This document shows, one piece after another, positions 1,920 through 10,068 of a DNA stretch of 64,000 nucleotides. Source of the stretch: Clostridia bacterium. Its GTDB lineage: Bacteria > Bacillota > Clostridia > Christensenellales > QALW01. The notes below the pieces were generated by a model that worked only from the letters and a program-made list of their open reading frames with translations, did not search any database and was not told the origin of the DNA. Position numbers and translations under genes: made by a program. Location of the stretch: NCBI GenBank assembly GCA_045541035.1, contig JAZQII010000059.1, positions 899 through 64,898 of the forward strand. Direction: 5' to 3'. Every line of letters starts with the position of its first letter. Within the stretch, counting starts at the first letter, position 1.

Positions 1920-4820
1920 TTACTTGAATAATTCAATTTTATCAATTCCAAAGTGCATGAAAGAATAGCGTTCTTTAAATTCTTTGGCAACGGAATCTTC
2001 GCTCCATTGACCTTCAAAGGTGAAACTTGCGGGAACTACTGCAAAAGATTCATTGGTCTTGTGGTGAAGTGGACCTAACGTATTTCTTAATGAATTTATA
2101 AGTTCCACCTTTATTTCGTTTTCGCCGTCTTCAAGATCAATATAAGCGGTGCGGTCAAAGATAAGTGTTTTAACCTTTTTGTTGTTTATGAATAAGTTGC
2201 ATATAGCATATCTTCCGGGGATAGAAAGCAGATATTTACCCTTTTCAGCATTAAAAGATTTCTTCAAGGTGATTTTTCCGTAGAAGAATGGATAAAGATC
2301 CGTCGTTATATCGGAAATATCAACGGTACGTTTTTGTTTTGTTATTGTGAAATTACCGTCGTTTAATCTGCTGTCATTTTCACCGATAGTATAATTCTTA
2401 TCCGAGCAAACACCGAAAGAGCCGAAAAGATAAACGGCTTCAATTTCAGTATCAAGTGAAAGACAGTTGCGTAAAGATTCCATAACGTTTTGGAACAAAA
2501 CGTCATAAACTTTTTGTGCCTGATAATAATCAAAGGATAAAACTATCTCGTTTTTGCCTTTATGTGAAAGGTGTGATATAGGCGCAAGTTTAAAACTTCT
2601 GTCAATGCGCCAGTCATCTGTAAGAGTGGCTTCTTTGCCGTTAACCGTAATAGAAAGATCTTTTAACGGTTCAATGCAAAGGGCAAGGTTTTTGGGAATA
2701 AAGTCAGCATTAAAAGTAAATTTCAAATATACTTTACCGCAATGTTTCCGTTTAAGTAAAAGTTCATGAATGTGCTTTATATAGCGCACAGGCTCGTAAG
2801 TTTTGCCGTCAAAGGAAAGAGATGCAAAATCAAGAGCAATGCAATTTTCAGGTTTTTTTGTGAGAGTAAAATCGTTTTCTAAAGTATATGCCTTAAAAAG
2901 TTCTTTTTCAGGTTCTTTTTTAGTTAAAGTTTTTGTTTCGAAAAGCATATATGAAGCAGAATCGGTAAAATCAAGAACAACGTTTACGTCTTTTTTGTTC
3001 TTTTCAATATTTAAAGTATCTTCCTTTAAATCGAGCATGTGAATCTGCTTTAAGCCTTTGCAGTTTTTTACGGTAAGAGTTGCACCTTTTATTTCTTTTT
3101 CGGTAAGATTTGTAATATAGAAGATTCTTCCGTGTTCGGTTGTGCGGACGTTTATGCGCATTCTATCTATTGGCATATTATCCTTTTCAATAAAGGCTTC
3201 ACGGGAAGAAAGAATATCTTCAAAAGTTTTGTTGGCTTTAAGCCATGAAAGATCTGAAATTTTACCGTCGATACGGGTTGGCATCGTACCTTCTGAAACC
3301 ACTTTACCGCCGTTTTTAATAAACTCTTTAAGAAGAGAAGCGGTAAATGAGTCAATAGTTTCTGCTTCGGGGATAACTACGTAATCGTACTTGCATTGAC
3401 CGATAATAAATTTATCGTTTTCAACTTTTCCGTGGCGTGAAATAATTGTTTCATCACCTAAATGATACTGCACGCCAAAATTTCCGTATTTATCTAAAAG
3501 TGCATGGAATGGTGCTTCAAGGTGCTTGACGCTTTCATCTGAAGCGATGCGCTGATAATATAAATATAATGAGTGCATTGGATGAAGAATAAGAACGTTG
3601 GCGTTTTCTTTACCTTCTGCCATAAGTGCGCCTATGTGGGCAAAATAATCGTTGAATTGTTTATAGTATGAGTTCCATGGCAGATGATCGCTGTAATGAG
3701 CAGGATAATCGTACTTTCTTTCACCGCGTTCAGAATAGGGGTAAAGGTGAGAACAGATAAGGTTTATGCCTGAAACAAATTGCCATTGGGCAATACGTTT
3801 AAGTTCGATAGGCGAAACGTCCCAACCGCAAAGGGCAAACGTTTCTGTAAGGACTTTTTTCTTATTTAACTGTGCGGCAACAGAACCTAACTGTTTAGGC
3901 GCAAGATCATCATAAAACATTCTTCCTAAATGATCCATGCCGGGAATATGTTCATATTCATAAAAAGGCATTACACCGCCGCAGCACACCATCTGGAATG
4001 CAAGGGAAGTTTCTTCAATACTGTGTCCCGTAAGTTTTGCACCGTTTTCTTCGCACCAATCATATATTTGTTTTGCAAAACTATCGTTATATTGTCTGTG
4101 GCACAAAAGCCAATAGTCATAGCGCATTTCTTTTGCGCCTTCAAAATCAATAAAGAGGGCAGGGATAGCCTTATAAACGCTATATCCGTATGCTTCCTGA
4201 AAGTTTTTAAGAAAAGTATCAGACCACGCGGTATTATAGCGATAGTACTGAGGCTCGTCAGTAAAAAAGCCGGGCATTGCTTTACCGAAATTTTCGCCTA
4301 CCCGTTTTTTATATTGTTCGTGAGTTGCCGTGATAAATTTTCTGATTATGTTTTTGTCAAGAATATCAACGTAACTTGCAGAATATTCTCTGTAAACGTT
4401 GAGAAATTCTCCGTCTTCAGGGTTAGTAACCTGAACGCCTTCAAGAGTGTAAACGGCAAAGGCGTTTTCATCAAATTTTCCGATTTTATGTGTGAGATAG
4501 GCAACAAAATTTTTAGGATCTTTTAAAAGTTCTCCTCCTGCAAAGCCTGAAGGCCAACCGTTTTCATCGTAAGCCCACGCTTCCATATCGAGTTTTTTCG
4601 CTTCTTCTACGCAGGCATTTATGCAATCGTACCATTCATCGGAACAATATTCAGTTTTTAATCCTCCGCGGGCGTGCATGAAGAATCCGTTAAGACCGAT
4701 ATCTTTCATGTTATGAATCTGCCTTAAAAGTTCATCTTTTTCAAGTTTATCGTTCCAACTCCAGAAAGGGAGACCGCCGAATTCTTTTTTGTTTTCTTTT
4801 ATCTTTTTTGTTAATTTCAT
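1920..4820 (-). CDS. GH106-like (alpha-L-rhamnosidase family) glycoside hydrolase, cytoplasmic
   Basis: PFWSWN, FFMHARGG, WAYDENGWPSG, FFTDEP and HIPGMDHLG motifs plus a C-terminal sugar-binding domain. Start moved to ATG 4820, which follows a GAGG RBS. Confidence 0.8.
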   Translation of the reverse strand: MKLTKKIKENKKEFGGLPFWSWNDKLEKDELLRQIHNMKDIGLNGFFMHARGGLKTEYCSDEWYDCINACVEEAKKLDMEAWAYDENGWPSGFAGGELLKDPKNFVAYLTHKIGKFDENAFAVYTLEGVQVTNPEDGEFLNVYREYSASYVDILDKNIIRKFITATHEQYKKRVGENFGKAMPGFFTDEPQYYRYNTAWSDTFLKNFQEAYGYSVYKAIPALFIDFEGAKEMRYDYWLLCHRQYNDSFAKQIYDWCEENGAKLTGHSIEETSLAFQMVCCGGVMPFYEYEHIPGMDHLGRMFYDDLAPKQLGSVAAQLNKKKVLTETFALCGWDVSPIELKRIAQWQFVSGINLICSHLYPYSERGERKYDYPAHYSDHLPWNSYYKQFNDYFAHIGALMAEGKENANVLILHPMHSLYLYYQRIASDESVKHLEAPFHALLDKYGNFGVQYHLGDETIISRHGKVENDKFIIGQCKYDYVVIPEAETIDSFTASLLKEFIKNGGKVVSEGTMPTRIDGKISDLSWLKANKTFEDILSSREAFIEKDNMPIDRMRINVRTTEHGRIFYITNLTEKEIKGATLTVKNCKGLKQIHMLDLKEDTLNIEKNKKDVNVVLDFTDSASYMLFETKTLTKKEPEKELFKAYTLENDFTLTKKPENCIALDFASLSFDGKTYEPVRYIKHIHELLLKRKHCGKVYLKFTFNADFIPKNLALCIEPLKDLSITVNGKEATLTDDWRIDRSFKLAPISHLSHKGKNEIVLSFDYYQAQKVYDVLFQNVMESLRNCLSLDTEIEAVYLFGSFGVCSDKNYTIGENDSRLNDGNFTITKQKRTVDISDITTDLYPFFYGKITLKKSFNAEKGKYLLSIPGRYAICNLFINNKKVKTLIFDRTAYIDLEDGENEIKVELINSLRNTLGPLHHKTNESFAVVPASFTFEGQWSEDSVAKEFKERYSFMHFGIDKIELFK

Positions 4821-4839
4821 TTGATACCTCACAAAAAAA

Positions 4840-4860
4840 CGTTGCACAATTACTGCAACG
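4840..4860. promoter_or_regulatory. Inverted repeat, candidate operator upstream of the GH106-like gene
   Basis: CGTTGCA-caattac-TGCAACG, 20 bp upstream of the start codon. Confidence 0.35.
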
Positions 4861-4962
4861 GTATTTTTTTTATTATAACATAGTGACTTTCTGTTTGTAA
4901 ACACCAAAAATGTCATTTATATTTTTTAAGGAAATATAATTAAACATAAGGAGGTGCTTTTT

Positions 4963-5421
4963 TTGAAAAAGGCAATTGTTTTGTTGGTGATTATTGCCAC
5001 AATGTTTTCGGGGTGTGCAAAAAAAGAAGTTAAAAATAATGAATACGGTAAAGTATCTTTTACTGTTATTGACGGTTTCAGCGGACTGCCCGTAGAAGGT
5101 GTAAGGCTTGTTATTCCCGAATGTGAAAAGGAACTTTTTACGGACTCTTCGGGAAAAACAGAACAAACAGAGGTTACTGTGATTAAAAATGAAAACAGCG
5201 TTCTCAAACAAGATTACGGCACTTTTTCGGTGCTGGGGTATAAAGACGGATATAACGAATACGCGTTATTCTATGCGCAGATAAAAGACGGTCAGGAACG
5301 TAATATAAAAGTATATATGTTTATGACCGATACGCCCCTTTCTTCGGGAACACCCCTTGCAACCATTGAAAGTCCTGATAAGGAATGGGTTAATGCGCTG
5401 GTGGAAAAATACAGAAATTAA
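4963..5421 (+). CDS. Hypothetical lipoprotein (beta-sandwich-like)
   Basis: AGGAGG RBS then TTG at 4963; MKKAIVLLVIIATMFSGC lipobox. Confidence 0.75.
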   Translation: MKKAIVLLVIIATMFSGCAKKEVKNNEYGKVSFTVIDGFSGLPVEGVRLVIPECEKELFTDSSGKTEQTEVTVIKNENSVLKQDYGTFSVLGYKDGYNEYALFYAQIKDGQERNIKVYMFMTDTPLSSGTPLATIESPDKEWVNALVEKYRN

Positions 5422-5522
5422 ATATTCAGTTTTATGCATAAAAATACATAAAATTTACAAATAAAAACGAAAAAAACGCTTGACAAACCTTTTTTATAAA
5501 CGGAAATTTTTCAAAAAACAAT

Positions 5523-5680
5523 TTATCCACAGGTGTTGATAACTTTGATTTCATTTGTGGATAAATTCATATGTCAAGGAAAATGGGGAAGTTAAATGTG
5601 GATAACTTTTTGGCAAAAAGGAAAGTTATCCACATAAAAGCAAAAAAACCCGTATTTTACTGAACTTTTACTGTGGATTA
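5523..5680. promoter_or_regulatory. DnaA-box cluster
   Basis: Perfect TTATCCACA boxes at 5523-5531 (+), 5556-5564 (-), 5597-5605 (-) and 5626-5634 (+). One-mismatch boxes at 5534-5542 and 5672-5680. AT-rich flanks. Confidence 0.85.
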
Positions 5681-5860
5681 CTTTTTTTGATTCAATTTGT
5701 TAAAATAGTATTACAAAAATTGAATTTTTGCAAATTTTCATTAAAATCAGGCAAAAATGTTTATGCATAATGTATGCAAAAAAATGAATGAAGAAAAATC
5801 CTTTAAAAATGCGGTAAAACAAGGGTTTCTACTGTTTTTTTAAGAAAAGAGAGAATTTTT

Positions 5861-6574
5861 ATGACTGAAAAAATCTTAAAATATTTATGCGGAATTTTGC
5901 TTGTTACGGCACTTACTTTTGGAATGTTTTTCCGTGATACAGATAAAGCAGAATCTGTTTTTTTAAATTATCCGTTAAATGATTACGTAATTGTTCTTGA
6001 TGCAGGGCACGGCGGTGATGACGGCGGTGCAATAGGAATAAAAACACTTACACGTGAAAAAGATATAAATCTTTCAATAACTTTAAAACTTGCCCGTCTT
6101 TTTGAAAGCGTGGGCGCAACGGTTATTCTCACCAGAGCAGATGAAAATGCGCTATGTAAAAACGGGTTCAATAAAATGGAAGATATGCGATCCCGCGCTG
6201 AGATAATCGAAATTTCAAGACCTTACGTTGTTTTAAGCATTCATTGCAACAGTTTTCCGCAAAGCAAAAGTGTTAAAGGCGCGCAGACATTCTATTATCC
6301 GGGCTCTGTAACGGGAGAAGCATTGGCAGAAAGTATTCAGGAAAGTCTGAGTGAAATGGTAGATCCGAAAAATAAGCGACAGGTAAAAAGTGAAGATTTT
6401 TATATGCTCCGCCATGGAAATTCCACAAACGTTATGATTGAATGCGGTTTTCTTTCCTGCCCCGAAGAGGAAGTTTTGCTTATTGATGATAATTATCAAA
6501 ACAAACTGTCTTACGCCATATTTGACGGAACCTGCAAATACATATTAAAAGCAAACACTCCCGATAATATATAA
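5861..6574 (+). CDS. cwlD: N-acetylmuramoyl-L-alanine amidase (Amidase_3, CwlD-like)
   Basis: VLDAGHGGDDGG, EKDINL, LSIHCNS and VMIECGFLS motifs; N-terminal signal anchor. Confidence 0.8.
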   Translation: MTEKILKYLCGILLVTALTFGMFFRDTDKAESVFLNYPLNDYVIVLDAGHGGDDGGAIGIKTLTREKDINLSITLKLARLFESVGATVILTRADENALCKNGFNKMEDMRSRAEIIEISRPYVVLSIHCNSFPQSKSVKGAQTFYYPGSVTGEALAESIQESLSEMVDPKNKRQVKSEDFYMLRHGNSTNVMIECGFLSCPEEEVLLIDDNYQNKLSYAIFDGTCKYILKANTPDNI

Positions 6575-6631
6575 TTGCTTTTTTTTTCGAAATATAATAT
6601 AATTATCTTACAAAATGTTCGGGAGATAATT

Positions 6632-7459
6632 ATGCGCCAAATTACAGTTGAAAAAATTGAAAATGCAGTTTTTGACCTTTTGAGGGATATTTGTGTTAAT
6701 ATGCCCAAAGATACGGAAAAAATGATAGAAGATGCCTATAAAAATGAGATTTCTGACTACGGAAAAGCCAATCTTAAAATGGCGCTTGATAATATCAAGA
6801 TTGCAAGAGAAAACAATATGCCCATCTGTCAGGATACGGGAATGGTTACAGTTTTTGCTGAAATCGGGCAGGAAGTGCATATTGTCGGCGGAAATTTTGT
6901 TGATGCTATAAATTCAGCCGTAAAAAAAGCATACGTTCCTTTCAGAAAAAGTGTTCTTTCTCCGATAGACCGCATAAATACGGGAGATAACACTCCTGCG
7001 GTTATTCATACTTCGCTTGTTGAAGGCGATAAAATCAAACTAACCGTTGCGCCTAAAGGCTTCGGAAGCGAAAACATGAGCGCTCTAAAAATGCTTAAAC
7101 CGTCAGAAGGTCTTGAGGGAATTAAAAACTTTGTTATTGAAACTGTTTCAAAGGCAGGCTCAAACCCTTGTCCGCCCGTTATTATCGGTGTAGGTATCGG
7201 CGGAACAATGGAAAAGGCGGCTATTATGTCAAAACACGCTTTGGCAGTTTCAAAAAATTCCGACGATCTCTTTTTAAAAAAACTTGAAAAAGAACTTTTG
7301 GAAAAAATAAACGATCTTGGTATCGGTCCACAAGGTCTTGGCGGAAGATGCACTTGCCTTAACGTTTACATTGAAACTTATCCTACCCATATAGCAGGCT
7401 TACCCGTTGCAGTAAACGTTCAATGTCATTGTGCCCGTCACGGCGAGGTGATAATATGA
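6632..7459 (+). CDS. Fe-S fumarate hydratase (class I, tartrate/fumarate family), alpha subunit
   Basis: [29 protein letters not shown] and NVQCHCARH motifs. Start at ATG 6632 after a GGAG RBS. Confidence 0.9.
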
Positions 7460-8004
7460 TAGAACTTAAATTTCCTTTAGAAGACAGAGAAATACTTAAA
7501 ACTTTAAAAGCGGGGGATAGCGTGCTTCTTTCAGGTGTTATCTACACCGGCAGAGATGCTGCACACAAAAAACTTGTTGAAAAAATAGATAAGTGTGAAG
7601 AACTTCCCGTTGAAATTAAGGATATTGCTATTTACTATACGGGCCCTTGCCCAAAACCCGAAAATAAACCTATCGGCTCGTGCGGGCCTACAACAAGCGG
7701 AAGAATGGATGCTTATGCGCCTAAATTATTAGACCTTGGACAAGCAGTAATGATCGGCAAAGGCGAAAGAAATGATGAAGTCATATCTGCCTGCAAAAGA
7801 AATAAGGCGGTGTATCTTGCGGCGGCAGGCGGAGCAGGCGCTCTTTTGGCAGATTCGGTAAAAAAGTGCGAAGTTATTGCTTTTCCCGAACTTTTGTCTG
7901 AGGCAATTCATCGCCTTGAAGTTGAAAAAATGCCTCTTATTGTTGCTATTGATACTGAAGGCAGAGATCTTTTTAAAACGGGCAGAGACAAATATAAAAA
8001 ATAA
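7456..8004 (+). CDS. Fe-S fumarate hydratase, beta subunit
   Basis: YTGRDAAH, GPTTSGRMD and MIGKGER motifs; ATGA overlap with the alpha-subunit stop. Confidence 0.9.
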   Translation: MIELKFPLEDREILKTLKAGDSVLLSGVIYTGRDAAHKKLVEKIDKCEELPVEIKDIAIYYTGPCPKPENKPIGSCGPTTSGRMDAYAPKLLDLGQAVMIGKGERNDEVISACKRNKAVYLAAAGGAGALLADSVKKCEVIAFPELLSEAIHRLEVEKMPLIVAIDTEGRDLFKTGRDKYKK

Positions 8005-8166: not shown

Positions 8167-8604
8167 ATGGCAGAAGATTTTATTTTAAATGAACTTTCTA
8201 AAAAATTTAACGGTGATGAAAATTCTGTAAGGCAATTAAATCCGTTGATTCTTGCGTCGATAGGAGATGCGGTTTACAGTCTAAGTATTCGTTGCCATAT
8301 GGTTGCAAATCATGATTTCAATGCTCATATGCTCCATATGAATTCTGCAAAAATGGTTCGCGCTTCGGCACAGAAAGAAGCGTATTATAAGATTGAAAAC
8401 TTGCTTTTGGAAGATGAACTTTATATTGCAAAGCGGGGTAGAAATTCGCATCCGGGAACAGTACCCAAAAATGCTGATATTTTAGATTACCGCGTTGCAA
8501 CGGCACTTGAAGCGGTGTTTGGCTATTTATATATTTTGAATAAAGCCGATAGAATAAATCTTTTAATAAAAACTATATTGGAGAATGAAAATGAAGAAAT
8601 TTGA
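8167..8604 (+). CDS. mrnC: Mini-ribonuclease III
   Basis: LASIGDAVY, KRGRN and YRVATALEAVFGYLY motifs; upstream of rlmB as expected. Confidence 0.9.
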   Translation: MAEDFILNELSKKFNGDENSVRQLNPLILASIGDAVYSLSIRCHMVANHDFNAHMLHMNSAKMVRASAQKEAYYKIENLLLEDELYIAKRGRNSHPGTVPKNADILDYRVATALEAVFGYLYILNKADRINLLIKTILENENEEI

Positions 8605-9481
8605 TGATAGAAAATTCAATAATAAAAACAGAAGTTTTGATAAAAATAAGAAATTCGATAAGCCACGCTACGATAAACCCAGATTCAATGATGAAAAACC
8701 TAAACGCTTTGAAAAGCGTGATGAATCTGAAAAAGATGAATTTTGCGAAAATATTCTTGAGGGCAGAAATCCCATTCGTGAAGCAATAAAAGCAGGCAGA
8801 AATATTGAACGTCTTCTTGTTGCCGAGGGCGAGATTCAAGGCTCGGTAAAGGAAATCGTTTACGATGCAAAGGCTAACGGTGCAATTATTCAGGAAGTTG
8901 AACGTGCACGCCTGGACCGTATTTCACAAACAGGTGCGCATCAGGGAATTATTGCTTACGTTGCGGTTAAAGAGTACGTAAGCGTTGACGATATTTTAGA
9001 ATATGCCCGTGAAAAAGGCGAAGATCCTTTTATCGTAATTCTTGATGGCATCTGTGATCCTCAGAATTTAGGCGCGATTATCAGAAGTTCAGAATGCGCA
9101 GGCGTTCACGGTGTTATTATTCCTGAACGCAGAGCCGTGGGACTTACTCCCGTTGTTGCAAAATGCTCGGCAGGCGCCATTGAATATATGCGCATTGCCC
9201 GTGTTACCAATATTTCACAAACCATTGAAAAACTTAAAAAAGAAAACGTTTGGGTTTACGGTGCTTCAATGGAAGGTAAAAATTATTCACGTGTAAATAT
9301 GACAGGTGCTTGTGCGCTTGTTATCGGCGCTGAAGGGGAAGGACTTTCTCCTCTTGTTAAGAAAAATTGCGATTGCCTTGTTTCGCTTCCTCAGCTTGGT
9401 AAAATCGATTCTCTTAACGCTTCTGTTGCGGCAGGTATCCTTATTTATGATTGTTTAAGACAAAAGGGTGAGAAAAATTGA
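8591..9481 (+). CDS. rlmB: 23S rRNA (Gm2251) 2'-O-methyltransferase
   Basis: EGRNPIREA, HQGIIA, DPQNLGAIIRS, VIGAEGEG and SLNASVA SpoU motifs. ATG 8591 fits the RBS better than 8585. Confidence 0.9.
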   Translation: MKKFDDRKFNNKNRSFDKNKKFDKPRYDKPRFNDEKPKRFEKRDESEKDEFCENILEGRNPIREAIKAGRNIERLLVAEGEIQGSVKEIVYDAKANGAIIQEVERARLDRISQTGAHQGIIAYVAVKEYVSVDDILEYAREKGEDPFIVILDGICDPQNLGAIIRSSECAGVHGVIIPERRAVGLTPVVAKCSAGAIEYMRIARVTNISQTIEKLKKENVWVYGASMEGKNYSRVNMTGACALVIGAEGEGLSPLVKKNCDCLVSLPQLGKIDSLNASVAAGILIYDCLRQKGEKN

Positions 9482-10068
9482 AGTTAGACGTTTCTGACGA
9501 ACAACTTGCAATCCTTGCGCAGATGGGAAATAACAGCGCTTCGGAAATACTTTTAAATAAATATAAACCTCACGTAAGAAGTATATGTAAACGTTTTTTT
9601 ATGGCAGGCGCCACAAAAGAAGATATTATTCAGGAAGGTATGATCGGTCTTTACAGAGCCATTATGAGTTACAGTCCTGAAAAAAACAGCAGTTTTTCTG
9701 CCTTTGCCATAATGTGTATCAGACGGCACGTTGTTACTAAGGTTCAAGGTGCAAACAGAAAAAAGAATCAACCGCTTAACACCAGCGTTTCGTTAAGTAA
9801 ACCCGTAAGCGATAACGGCGTAACTTTAGGCGAGATCATTGAAGATGAATCTCAGGATCCTGAAATCATGTTTATTGATTCTGAAAATAAACAAAACGCT
9901 AAAAAACGTATCAGCGGTATGCTTTCTCCCCTTGAAAAGCGGATTCTTATTGAATATCTTAAAGATAAAACTTATGATGAGATAGCAAAAAAACTTAACG
10001 TTACAACAAAAAGTGTAGATAATGCAATGCAACGCATTAAAAATAAAATTTCCCGTTTGAAAGTGTAG
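9478..10068 (+). CDS. sigH: RNA polymerase sigma factor SigH
   Basis: EDIIQEGMIGLY, RKKNQPLN.SVSL and KSVDNAMQRIK motifs; position after rlmB. Confidence 0.9.
   Translation: MKLDVSDEQLAILAQMGNNSASEILLNKYKPHVRSICKRFFMAGATKEDIIQEGMIGLYRAIMSYSPEKNSSFSAFAIMCIRRHVVTKVQGANRKKNQPLNTSVSLSKPVSDNGVTLGEIIEDESQDPEIMFIDSENKQNAKKRISGMLSPLEKRILIEYLKDKTYDEIAKKLNVTTKSVDNAMQRIKNKISRLKV

Follow-up and report, generated by a model that had tools for sequence, protein, structure and literature searches.

A conserved DnaA-box array outside the replication origin in a genus of uncultured Clostridia

Introduction

Why does a clostridial genome carry its densest cluster of DnaA boxes at a site with neither dnaA nor dnaN as a neighbour? 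The question is raised by a stretch of 64,000 nucleotides (GenBank contig JAZQII010000059.1, positions 899 to 64,898; here called the window). Six DnaA boxes, referred to as the array, are crowded there between a predicted lipoprotein gene, orf155, and a cwlD-like amidase gene. An earlier note on this DNA had offered three explanations: a locus that titrates DnaA, a DnaA-controlled promoter of a sporulation gene, or a displaced origin. We find that the boxes are packed into one intergenic region, lie outside the origin and are conserved in relatives, and with these properties the array is a DnaA-box cluster (DBC). It adds a locus to the non-origin DBCs already known from Bacillus subtilis.

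The window is contig C59 of genome G000, a draft of 109 contigs (2.51 Mb, 38.6% GC). Other G labels denote the relatives with which it was compared, and all assemblies are metagenome-assembled genomes (MAGs) of an uncultured lineage. From sequence comparison we infer DnaA binding to the array, its descent from a cluster next to tsaD, and every functional output discussed below.

Results and Discussion

The array is the densest DnaA-box cluster of the genome and is conserved in the genus

Boxes were counted when they had at most one mismatch to TTATNCACA. The array was found as the earlier note had described it, with four perfect and two one-mismatch copies of TTATCCACA within 158 bp (Table 1). 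Boxes 1 and 2 stand head-to-head with a gap of 2 bp, and the perfect 14-bp inverted repeat formed by boxes 4 and 5 (5596-5609/5622-5635) was recovered by a repeat search. The AT-rich spacer between the two genes extends from 5422 to 5860 and measures 439 bp, where 440 had been given. The window as a whole holds 32 boxes, compared with 18.0 ± 3.8 in shuffled sequences. Perfect boxes number 34 in the whole assembly (29 expected), and four of these fall within 112 bp in the array. With six boxes per 300 bp the array is the top-ranked cluster of the genome; the next real one, upstream of dnaN, has three. Other apparent clusters, on contigs C74, C90, C8 and C6, were rejected as Q/N-rich coding repeats or ordinary coding sequence. 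The case on C74 (57148-57202, with four one-mismatch boxes in 55 bp) arises artefactually from a TATCAACAGAA repeat, which codes for a low-complexity protein segment rich in Q, N and Y. As far as predicted boxes can tell, the array is in this genus the strongest DnaA site of the genome, above the origin and the dnaA promoter.

Of the 20 other species in the genus, 19 have a matching spacer (68-82% DNA identity), as does one species from a sister genus; the array itself is present in at least 19 of the 20 and in two sister genera. In a 20-species alignment the mean frequency of the majority base is 0.95 for box columns versus 0.69 for spacer columns, and columns conserved to at least 90% make up 47 of 54 positions in the boxes versus 22 of 104 in the spacers. 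Box 6 is perfect in none of the 20 species; 12 deviate from the consensus at one position and eight at two or more, but TGTGGATTACTTTTTTT is conserved within it. Spacing (11/22/41/29/46 bp) and orientation (+ - - - + -) are the same in all species, apart from rare 1-bp indels. The box centres lie at 0, 1.05, 3.14, 7.05, 9.81 and 14.19 helical turns, never more than 0.2 turn off a whole turn. A cluster whose core spacing (11/22/42) matches that of the array precedes cwlD in the sister genus g4, where orf155 is not adjacent.

This pattern leaves next to no room for the idea that the boxes arose by chance or are a decaying relic without present function, the least probable explanation that we considered. 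Four of only 34 perfect 9-mers genome-wide would have to fall within 112 bp, and box columns are far more conserved than the spacers around them across species that share 68-82% identity. Moreover, the spacing is conserved and the array has been kept after loss of either neighbour (see below). The invariant boxes, their spacings and the conserved islands that flank them provide comparative material for binding and deletion experiments in tractable Firmicutes.

The array lies inside a replichore

We considered the array as the origin itself or as the distant, oriC1-like part of a bipartite origin that has been split and whose unwinding part would lie upstream of dnaN. The array is the densest cluster of the genome and sits in an AT-rich spacer. 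Throughout the genus dnaA and dnaN are unlinked, and the region upstream of dnaN has just 3-5 boxes. Moreover, Firmicute origins are normally bipartite, and oriC2 of Clostridioides difficile needs oriC1 for unwinding in vitro (PMC7561715). As the earlier note had stated, neither gene is near the array: dnaA is located on C6, dnaN on C87 and the window on C59. Each of the 21 species of the genus has the two genes on separate contigs, and they are also unlinked in the other genera of the family, while they are adjacent in many other families of the order.

The window's own assembly was unusable for whole-genome cumulative skew. Because it is fragmented and holds only 6.3 kb to the left of the array, long contigs of relatives were used. 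In four of these, the flanks to the left and right of the array measure 69 and 21 kb (G001), 62 and 14 kb (G016), 57 and 14 kb (G008) and 90 and 7 kb (G019). In all four species the sign of GC skew does not change across the array, and about 80% of the genes are co-oriented on both sides of it. On the window's own contig, skew to the left of the array stays positive despite the minus-strand genes there. The change from minus-strand genes on the left to plus-strand genes on the right, which had been read as a weak hint of an origin, turned out to be a local accident, given that the same order of a GH106 gene (minus) and the lipoprotein gene (plus) in G016 and G011 sits in a uniformly oriented replichore. 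A switch of skew and gene orientation was instead seen at dnaN, clearly in G019 and G020 and less clearly in G000, G008 and G011.

Sequence features of an origin follow the same division. A run of at least four TA(N) triplets (DnaA-trio) occurs at the array in none of the 20 species, whereas the region upstream of dnaN contains one in G000, G008 and G019 (three of six species examined). The dnaN-upstream spacer contains a conserved promoter, TTGCAA-N17-TATAAT, and then the DnaA boxes, of which the one nearest dnaN (about -82) is conserved and perfect in four of the six species. In G000, G008 and G019 a TAT/TAC trio-like run comes after this box, and the remaining stretch to the dnaN start is AT-rich; the oriC2 unwinding module of Firmicutes is built in this way (PMC7561715). 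The true oriC of the genus is thus likely located upstream of dnaN, with C87:16940-17391 (L008 7943-8392) as the candidate region in G000. The array is separated from dnaN by at least about 125 kb in G019, far past the looping distance of known bipartite origins, and in the closed genome G032 from oriC by about 577 kb. In other orders, equivalent clusters coexist with a classical adjacent dnaA-dnaN pair. With neither a switch nor a trio or unwinding element at the array, the displaced origin of the earlier note is refuted, and an origin function of any kind, including the split form, is highly improbable.

We conclude that dnaA has moved from the origin and that the array lies inside a replichore. 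One to three boxes are found upstream of dnaA in the genus, in G000 a single perfect one. In G019 and G020 no skew switch occurs in the region around dnaA, and the gene appears to run counter to the local skew. The 482-aa dnaA open reading frame (ORF) as listed probably begins about 28 codons too early. In this lineage, whose dnaA no longer lies at the origin, the array is the strongest predicted DnaA site. For annotation this is a warning that, in draft genomes of Clostridia, oriC is not necessarily found where DnaA boxes are densest.

The array outlasts its neighbours but is linked to cwlD across the order

Within the genus, orf155 lies directly upstream of the array in 19 of 20 loci, and the remaining locus is truncated by the end of its contig. 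None of 24 orf155 homologues outside the genus has boxes, and the cluster of g4 does without orf155; a general tie between the two was therefore rejected. The connection to cwlD is likewise breakable. In G001, G019 and G003, cwlD is found on another contig without boxes, and the six-box array remains intact after orf155; in G008 an insertion of 2.9 kb separates array and cwlD. The array is thus uncoupled from cwlD in four of the 20 species. In G001 (L021, G001:C81, about 1-1322) a GH95-like glycosidase gene with its own TGgTATAAT promoter takes the place of cwlD after the array. This gene is split into frames of 95 and 344 aa, owing to a frameshift or an assembly error.

Outside the family, 600 bp upstream of cwlD were compared with an equal downstream control at 61 orthologue loci from the order's other families. 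At least three boxes were present upstream in 30 of the 61 loci but downstream in only one; in total, 119 boxes in 37.2 kb upstream compare with 16 in 36.9 kb downstream. The 30 positive loci span 17 families, and cwlD-linked clusters are also found in the genera g1, g3 and g4. The genes upstream of these clusters vary and include those for TsaD, a RecF-like protein, an M1 peptidase, a 2-hydroxyacid dehydrogenase and a D-Ala-D-Ala carboxypeptidase. Many clusters of the order stand 80-150 bp before the cwlD start, those of this genus 190-340 bp. In other orders, a cluster of at least three boxes was found at none of 40 cwlD loci (40 genomes, 32 families), and a class-wide tie to cwlD was rejected on this ground.

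Upstream of the array, CTTGACA is invariant in all 20 species and keeps a fixed distance of 42-44 bp to box 1. The 15-mer to which it belongs, AAAAAACGCTTGACA, also precedes tRNA and leader promoters on C21, C23 and C52, where it is accompanied by a proper TATAAT. At the array, however, the 20-species comparison revealed no conserved -10 element after TTGACA; candidate hexamers are weak and variable, and a conserved sigma-A promoter at this position was rejected. The sole promoter predicted by a tool in the spacer (5720-5747) is a weak match in a non-conserved stretch. No intrinsic terminator was predicted after orf155. The 14-bp inverted repeat was also rejected as a terminator, as a T-run follows it on neither strand.

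These data bear on the possibility that the array is primarily a cis operator, through which DnaA would repress or activate cwlD and fumAB, the fumarate hydratase genes that follow it, with sequestration of DnaA a by-product. Expression of the spore-cortex amidase would then be tied to replication status or silenced in growing cells. The location of clusters on the 5' but hardly ever on the 3' side of cwlD in 17 families, behind changing upstream genes (g4 included) and often in a promoter-proximal position, is what an operator would produce. The invariant -35/UP-like element resembles a repressor layout: since its distance to box 1 is fixed, DnaA on boxes 1 and 2 would be placed just downstream of a putative start site. 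The lack of a predicted terminator after orf155 points the same way. Such clusters are indeed used by DnaA of B. subtilis to regulate sda, ywlC and yydA (PMC2533591). On the other hand, cwlD departed without boxes in three species and the array stayed, in a fourth the two are 2.9 kb apart, 31 of the 61 loci of the order have fewer than three upstream boxes, and none of the 40 genomes elsewhere has the cluster. The missing -10 element and the distance of 190-340 bp to the cwlD start in this genus also argue against an operator, as does the literature searched, which contains no paper linking cwlD with DnaA boxes. Furthermore, clusters of other orders follow tsaD and precede unrelated genes, and one in B. 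subtilis lies between convergent genes (PMC2533591). We regard a primary operator as possible but as clearly less probable than the interpretation favoured below.

A comparable cluster follows tsaD in other orders

The varying genes upstream of cwlD include one that recurs. tsaD (gcp), identified by Pfam TsaD, lies directly upstream of cwlD in 20 of the 61 loci of the order and in none of 40 outside it, and nine of these 20 loci have a cluster in between. In other orders, 22 of 30 genomes have at least three boxes within 700 bp downstream of tsaD, compared with none of 30 upstream. Summed over the tsaD flanks of these 30 genomes (L211-L240), 115 boxes in 21.4 kb downstream contrast with six in 21.6 kb upstream. 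The genes that come after these clusters are unrelated and lie on either strand. The tsaD clusters share the 42-44/12/9-bp spacing and the orientation of the cwlD-upstream clusters of this order, and a spacing of 41-44 bp between boxes of the same orientation is common to the array of the genus, the cwlD clusters of the order and the tsaD clusters. In the papers searched, a cluster downstream of tsaD is not reported for Clostridia.

The array is probably a relocated descendant of the tsaD-downstream cluster, as a chain of positions suggests: tsaD-DBC, tsaD-DBC-cwlD, X-DBC-cwlD and orf155-DBC-cwlD. An old cluster downstream of tsaD would have come first, and cwlD would have arrived behind it in an ancestor of this order. 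Rearrangement would later have taken tsaD away, and in this family the cluster would have stayed in front of cwlD. Finally, orf155 would have become the upstream neighbour in the genus, and in a few species cwlD would have left as well. A cluster at the gcp position has been kept in most of the Clostridia sampled, with a recognisable geometry, and outlives rearrangements on either side. This persistence argues for a selected, gene-independent function.

An autonomous cluster is the favoured reading

We favour the view that the array is a non-origin DBC that acts autonomously, whether or not it also affects transcription locally, and assign this view a probability of roughly 60%. The cluster is the one constant through the rearrangements, which would suit a gene-independent role, namely holding or modulating DnaA, better than that of a private operator. 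DnaA, encoded on C6, would bind the six boxes near whole helical turns apart and, as the almost indel-free spacing across the genus suggests, would probably form one cooperative nucleoprotein complex. Such a complex could keep DnaA from the true origin upstream of dnaN on C87, by titration or another form of negative initiation control. In B. subtilis, joint deletion of all six DBCs leads to early initiation (Okumura 2012, PMC3245932). Being located between the -35/UP-like element and cwlD-fumAB, the array may in addition gate transcription into these genes.

Several observations pull away from this view. With respect to descent, tsaD of G000 (on C3) has no boxes within 2 kb, the chain consists of positions and not of alignable sequence, and the 11/22/41/29/46 geometry of the genus differs from the common 42/12/9 pattern. 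With respect to function, attachment to cwlD throughout the order, despite changing upstream genes, is operator-like and not required of a pure sink. Distances to oriC of about 125 kb or more (G019) and about 577 kb (G032) give no indication of the 'oriC-proximal' location stressed for the B. subtilis DBCs, and single DBCs of B. subtilis have only small effects on initiation (PMC5295017). That all assemblies are MAGs has to be added to this side.

Of the explanations put forward in the earlier note, titration and promoter control hence both survive. An operator fits the order-wide link to cwlD, and a sink fits the persistence of the array after cwlD has left as well as the link to tsaD elsewhere. 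The former link, together with the invariant -35/UP-like element, keeps regulation in cis a live possibility.

Comparison with known DnaA-binding loci

The closest counterpart is DBC[gcp-ydiF], one of the six B. subtilis DBCs, whose spacer is stably bound by DnaA in vivo (Ishikawa 2007, PMC2533591). Among Bacillus species it is 'highly conserved', and it lies at the 3' ends of convergent genes, an arrangement called 'uncharacteristic for transcriptional regulation'; because of this position its role 'is not clear' (PMC2533591). Like the array, it consists of dense consensus boxes in an intergenic, non-oriC location, belongs to no particular gene's promoter and is conserved in relatives. In addition, the equivalent cluster directly after tsaD (= gcp) in 22 of 30 Clostridia of other orders, and the tsaD-cwlD arrangement at 20 of 61 loci of this order, connect the two positions. 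The array of G000 differs in that it no longer lies beside tsaD but between a lipoprotein gene and cwlD, and in its own geometry, which includes two boxes placed head-to-head and an inverted repeat of 14 bp. Furthermore, DBC[gcp-ydiF] binds DnaA in vivo, whereas the array is known from its sequence and common descent is suggested by gene orders.

The B. subtilis clusters yqeG-sda, ywlC-ywlB and yydA-yycS resemble the array in having boxes beside a promoter-like element, upstream of a gene. A sporulation-related gene is linked in the case of yqeG-sda (sda there, cwlD here), and as sink and regulatory roles coexist at several B. subtilis DBCs, they could do so here. However, sda, which Clostridia lack, acts when cells enter sporulation, while cwlD is a late cortex-modification gene. 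Unlike these three clusters, the array lacks a conserved -10 element and survives separation from its gene.

E. coli datA is likewise a non-origin chromosomal locus, with about five high-affinity boxes whose geometry matters, and it lowers the initiation potential. In contrast to the array, it needs IHF and catalyses hydrolysis of DnaA-ATP, an activity not known in Firmicutes (PMC5295017). The two are unrelated in sequence, and the conserved islands a, d and e of the array (Table 1) are merely candidate accessory sites. The Firmicute oriC2/incC module (B. subtilis; C. difficile, PMC7561715) has consensus boxes in an AT-rich spacer in common with the array, which however lacks a trio, an unwinding element, a skew switch and a dnaA or dnaN neighbour; in this genus, trio and skew switch are found upstream of dnaN. 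A bolder and rather doubtful proposal goes further. The clusters of Bacilli and Clostridia would form one ancient DnaA-control element, able to outlast repeated exchange of both flanking genes because it builds a defined, trans-acting nucleoprotein complex that inactivates DnaA in a datA-like manner or acts architecturally. In this order the element would also have come to control cwlD, which would make a gene for the spore cortex depend on DnaA status.

Other conserved elements and neighbouring genes

The coordinates of the array, the other conserved elements of the spacer and the relevant genes are collected in Table 1.

Table 1. Features of the DnaA-box array, its surroundings and the dnaA locus. 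Coordinates refer to the window unless a contig is named; species counts refer to the 20 aligned species.
Feature	Position	Strand	Sequence and remarks
orf155, predicted lipoprotein gene	4954-5421	+	155 aa; lipobox FSGC; upstream neighbour of array
Island a	5436-5463		TATGCATAAAAATACATAAAATTTACA; conserved alignment columns; candidate accessory-protein site
A-tract and -35 hexamer	5472-5486	+	AAAAAACGCTTGACA; resembles the -35/UP part of tRNA promoters in the genome
DnaA box 1	5523-5531	+	TTATCCACA, perfect; 11/20 perfect, 8/20 one mismatch
DnaA box 2	5534-5542	-	TTATCAACA, one mismatch; 12/20 perfect, 8/20 one mismatch
DnaA box 3	5556-5564	-	TTATCCACA, perfect; 18/20 perfect, 1/20 one mismatch
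DnaA box 4	5597-5605	-	TTATCCACA, perfect; left arm of inverted repeat; 17/20 perfect, 3/20 one mismatch
DnaA box 5	5626-5634	+	TTATCCACA, perfect; right arm of inverted repeat; 15/20 perfect, 5/20 one mismatch
DnaA box 6	5672-5680	-	TAATCCACA, one mismatch; conserved non-consensus site
Island d	5697-5716		TTGTTAAAATAGTATTACAA; TTGT-N12-ACAA partial palindrome; conserved in alignment; essentially unique in genome
Island e	5762-5778	+	TATGCATAATGTATGCA; contains CATAnnnTA; conserved in alignment; exact palindrome unique in genome
cwlD-like N-acetylmuramoyl-L-alanine amidase gene	5861-6574	+	237 aa; Pfam Amidase_3, E = 2.4e-41; downstream neighbour of array
fumA/fumB, class I fumarate hydratase alpha and beta	6575-8004	+	Pfam Fumerase, Fumerase_C
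dnaA	C6:42435-43883 (L003 9436-10884)	-	between GH20 glycosidase gene and gene for 720-aa membrane protein

Islands a, d and e may be binding sites of accessory proteins. Island d loosely resembles a Rex-type operator. The motif TTTATGCATAA occurs twice, at 5431-5441 and 5760-5770, and elements of the TATGCATA type are conserved on both sides of the array. Island e is degenerate in G019 and G003, two of the species in which cwlD has left, and no equivalent motif was found upstream of the relocated cwlD genes. Its CATAnnnTA resembles what we take to be the -10 consensus of mother-cell sigma factors, and island e is a possible sporulation promoter of cwlD. A search for structured RNA at five loci gave no Rfam family at the gathering score and only sub-threshold noise in the spacer. 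Two small ORFs in the spacer (30 and 19 aa) were rejected, as they are not conserved in the alignment.

No Pfam match was obtained for orf155. Downstream of the array, the stop of cwlD (6574) directly abuts the start of fumA (6575), and fumA overlaps fumB; the cwlD-fumA synteny is kept in most species of the genus. cwlD and fumAB are therefore probably one transcription unit, and a spore-cortex amidase gene would appear to share it with a class I fumarate hydratase. To the left of the array, two large ORFs (349-1671 and 1920-4916) are both encoded on the minus strand. Further to the right, at 8167-10068, genes for mini-RNase III (mrnC), rlmB and a sigH-like sigma factor follow each other in an order comparable to the origin-proximal region of Bacillus, and to their right lie core genes, for the most part on the plus strand.

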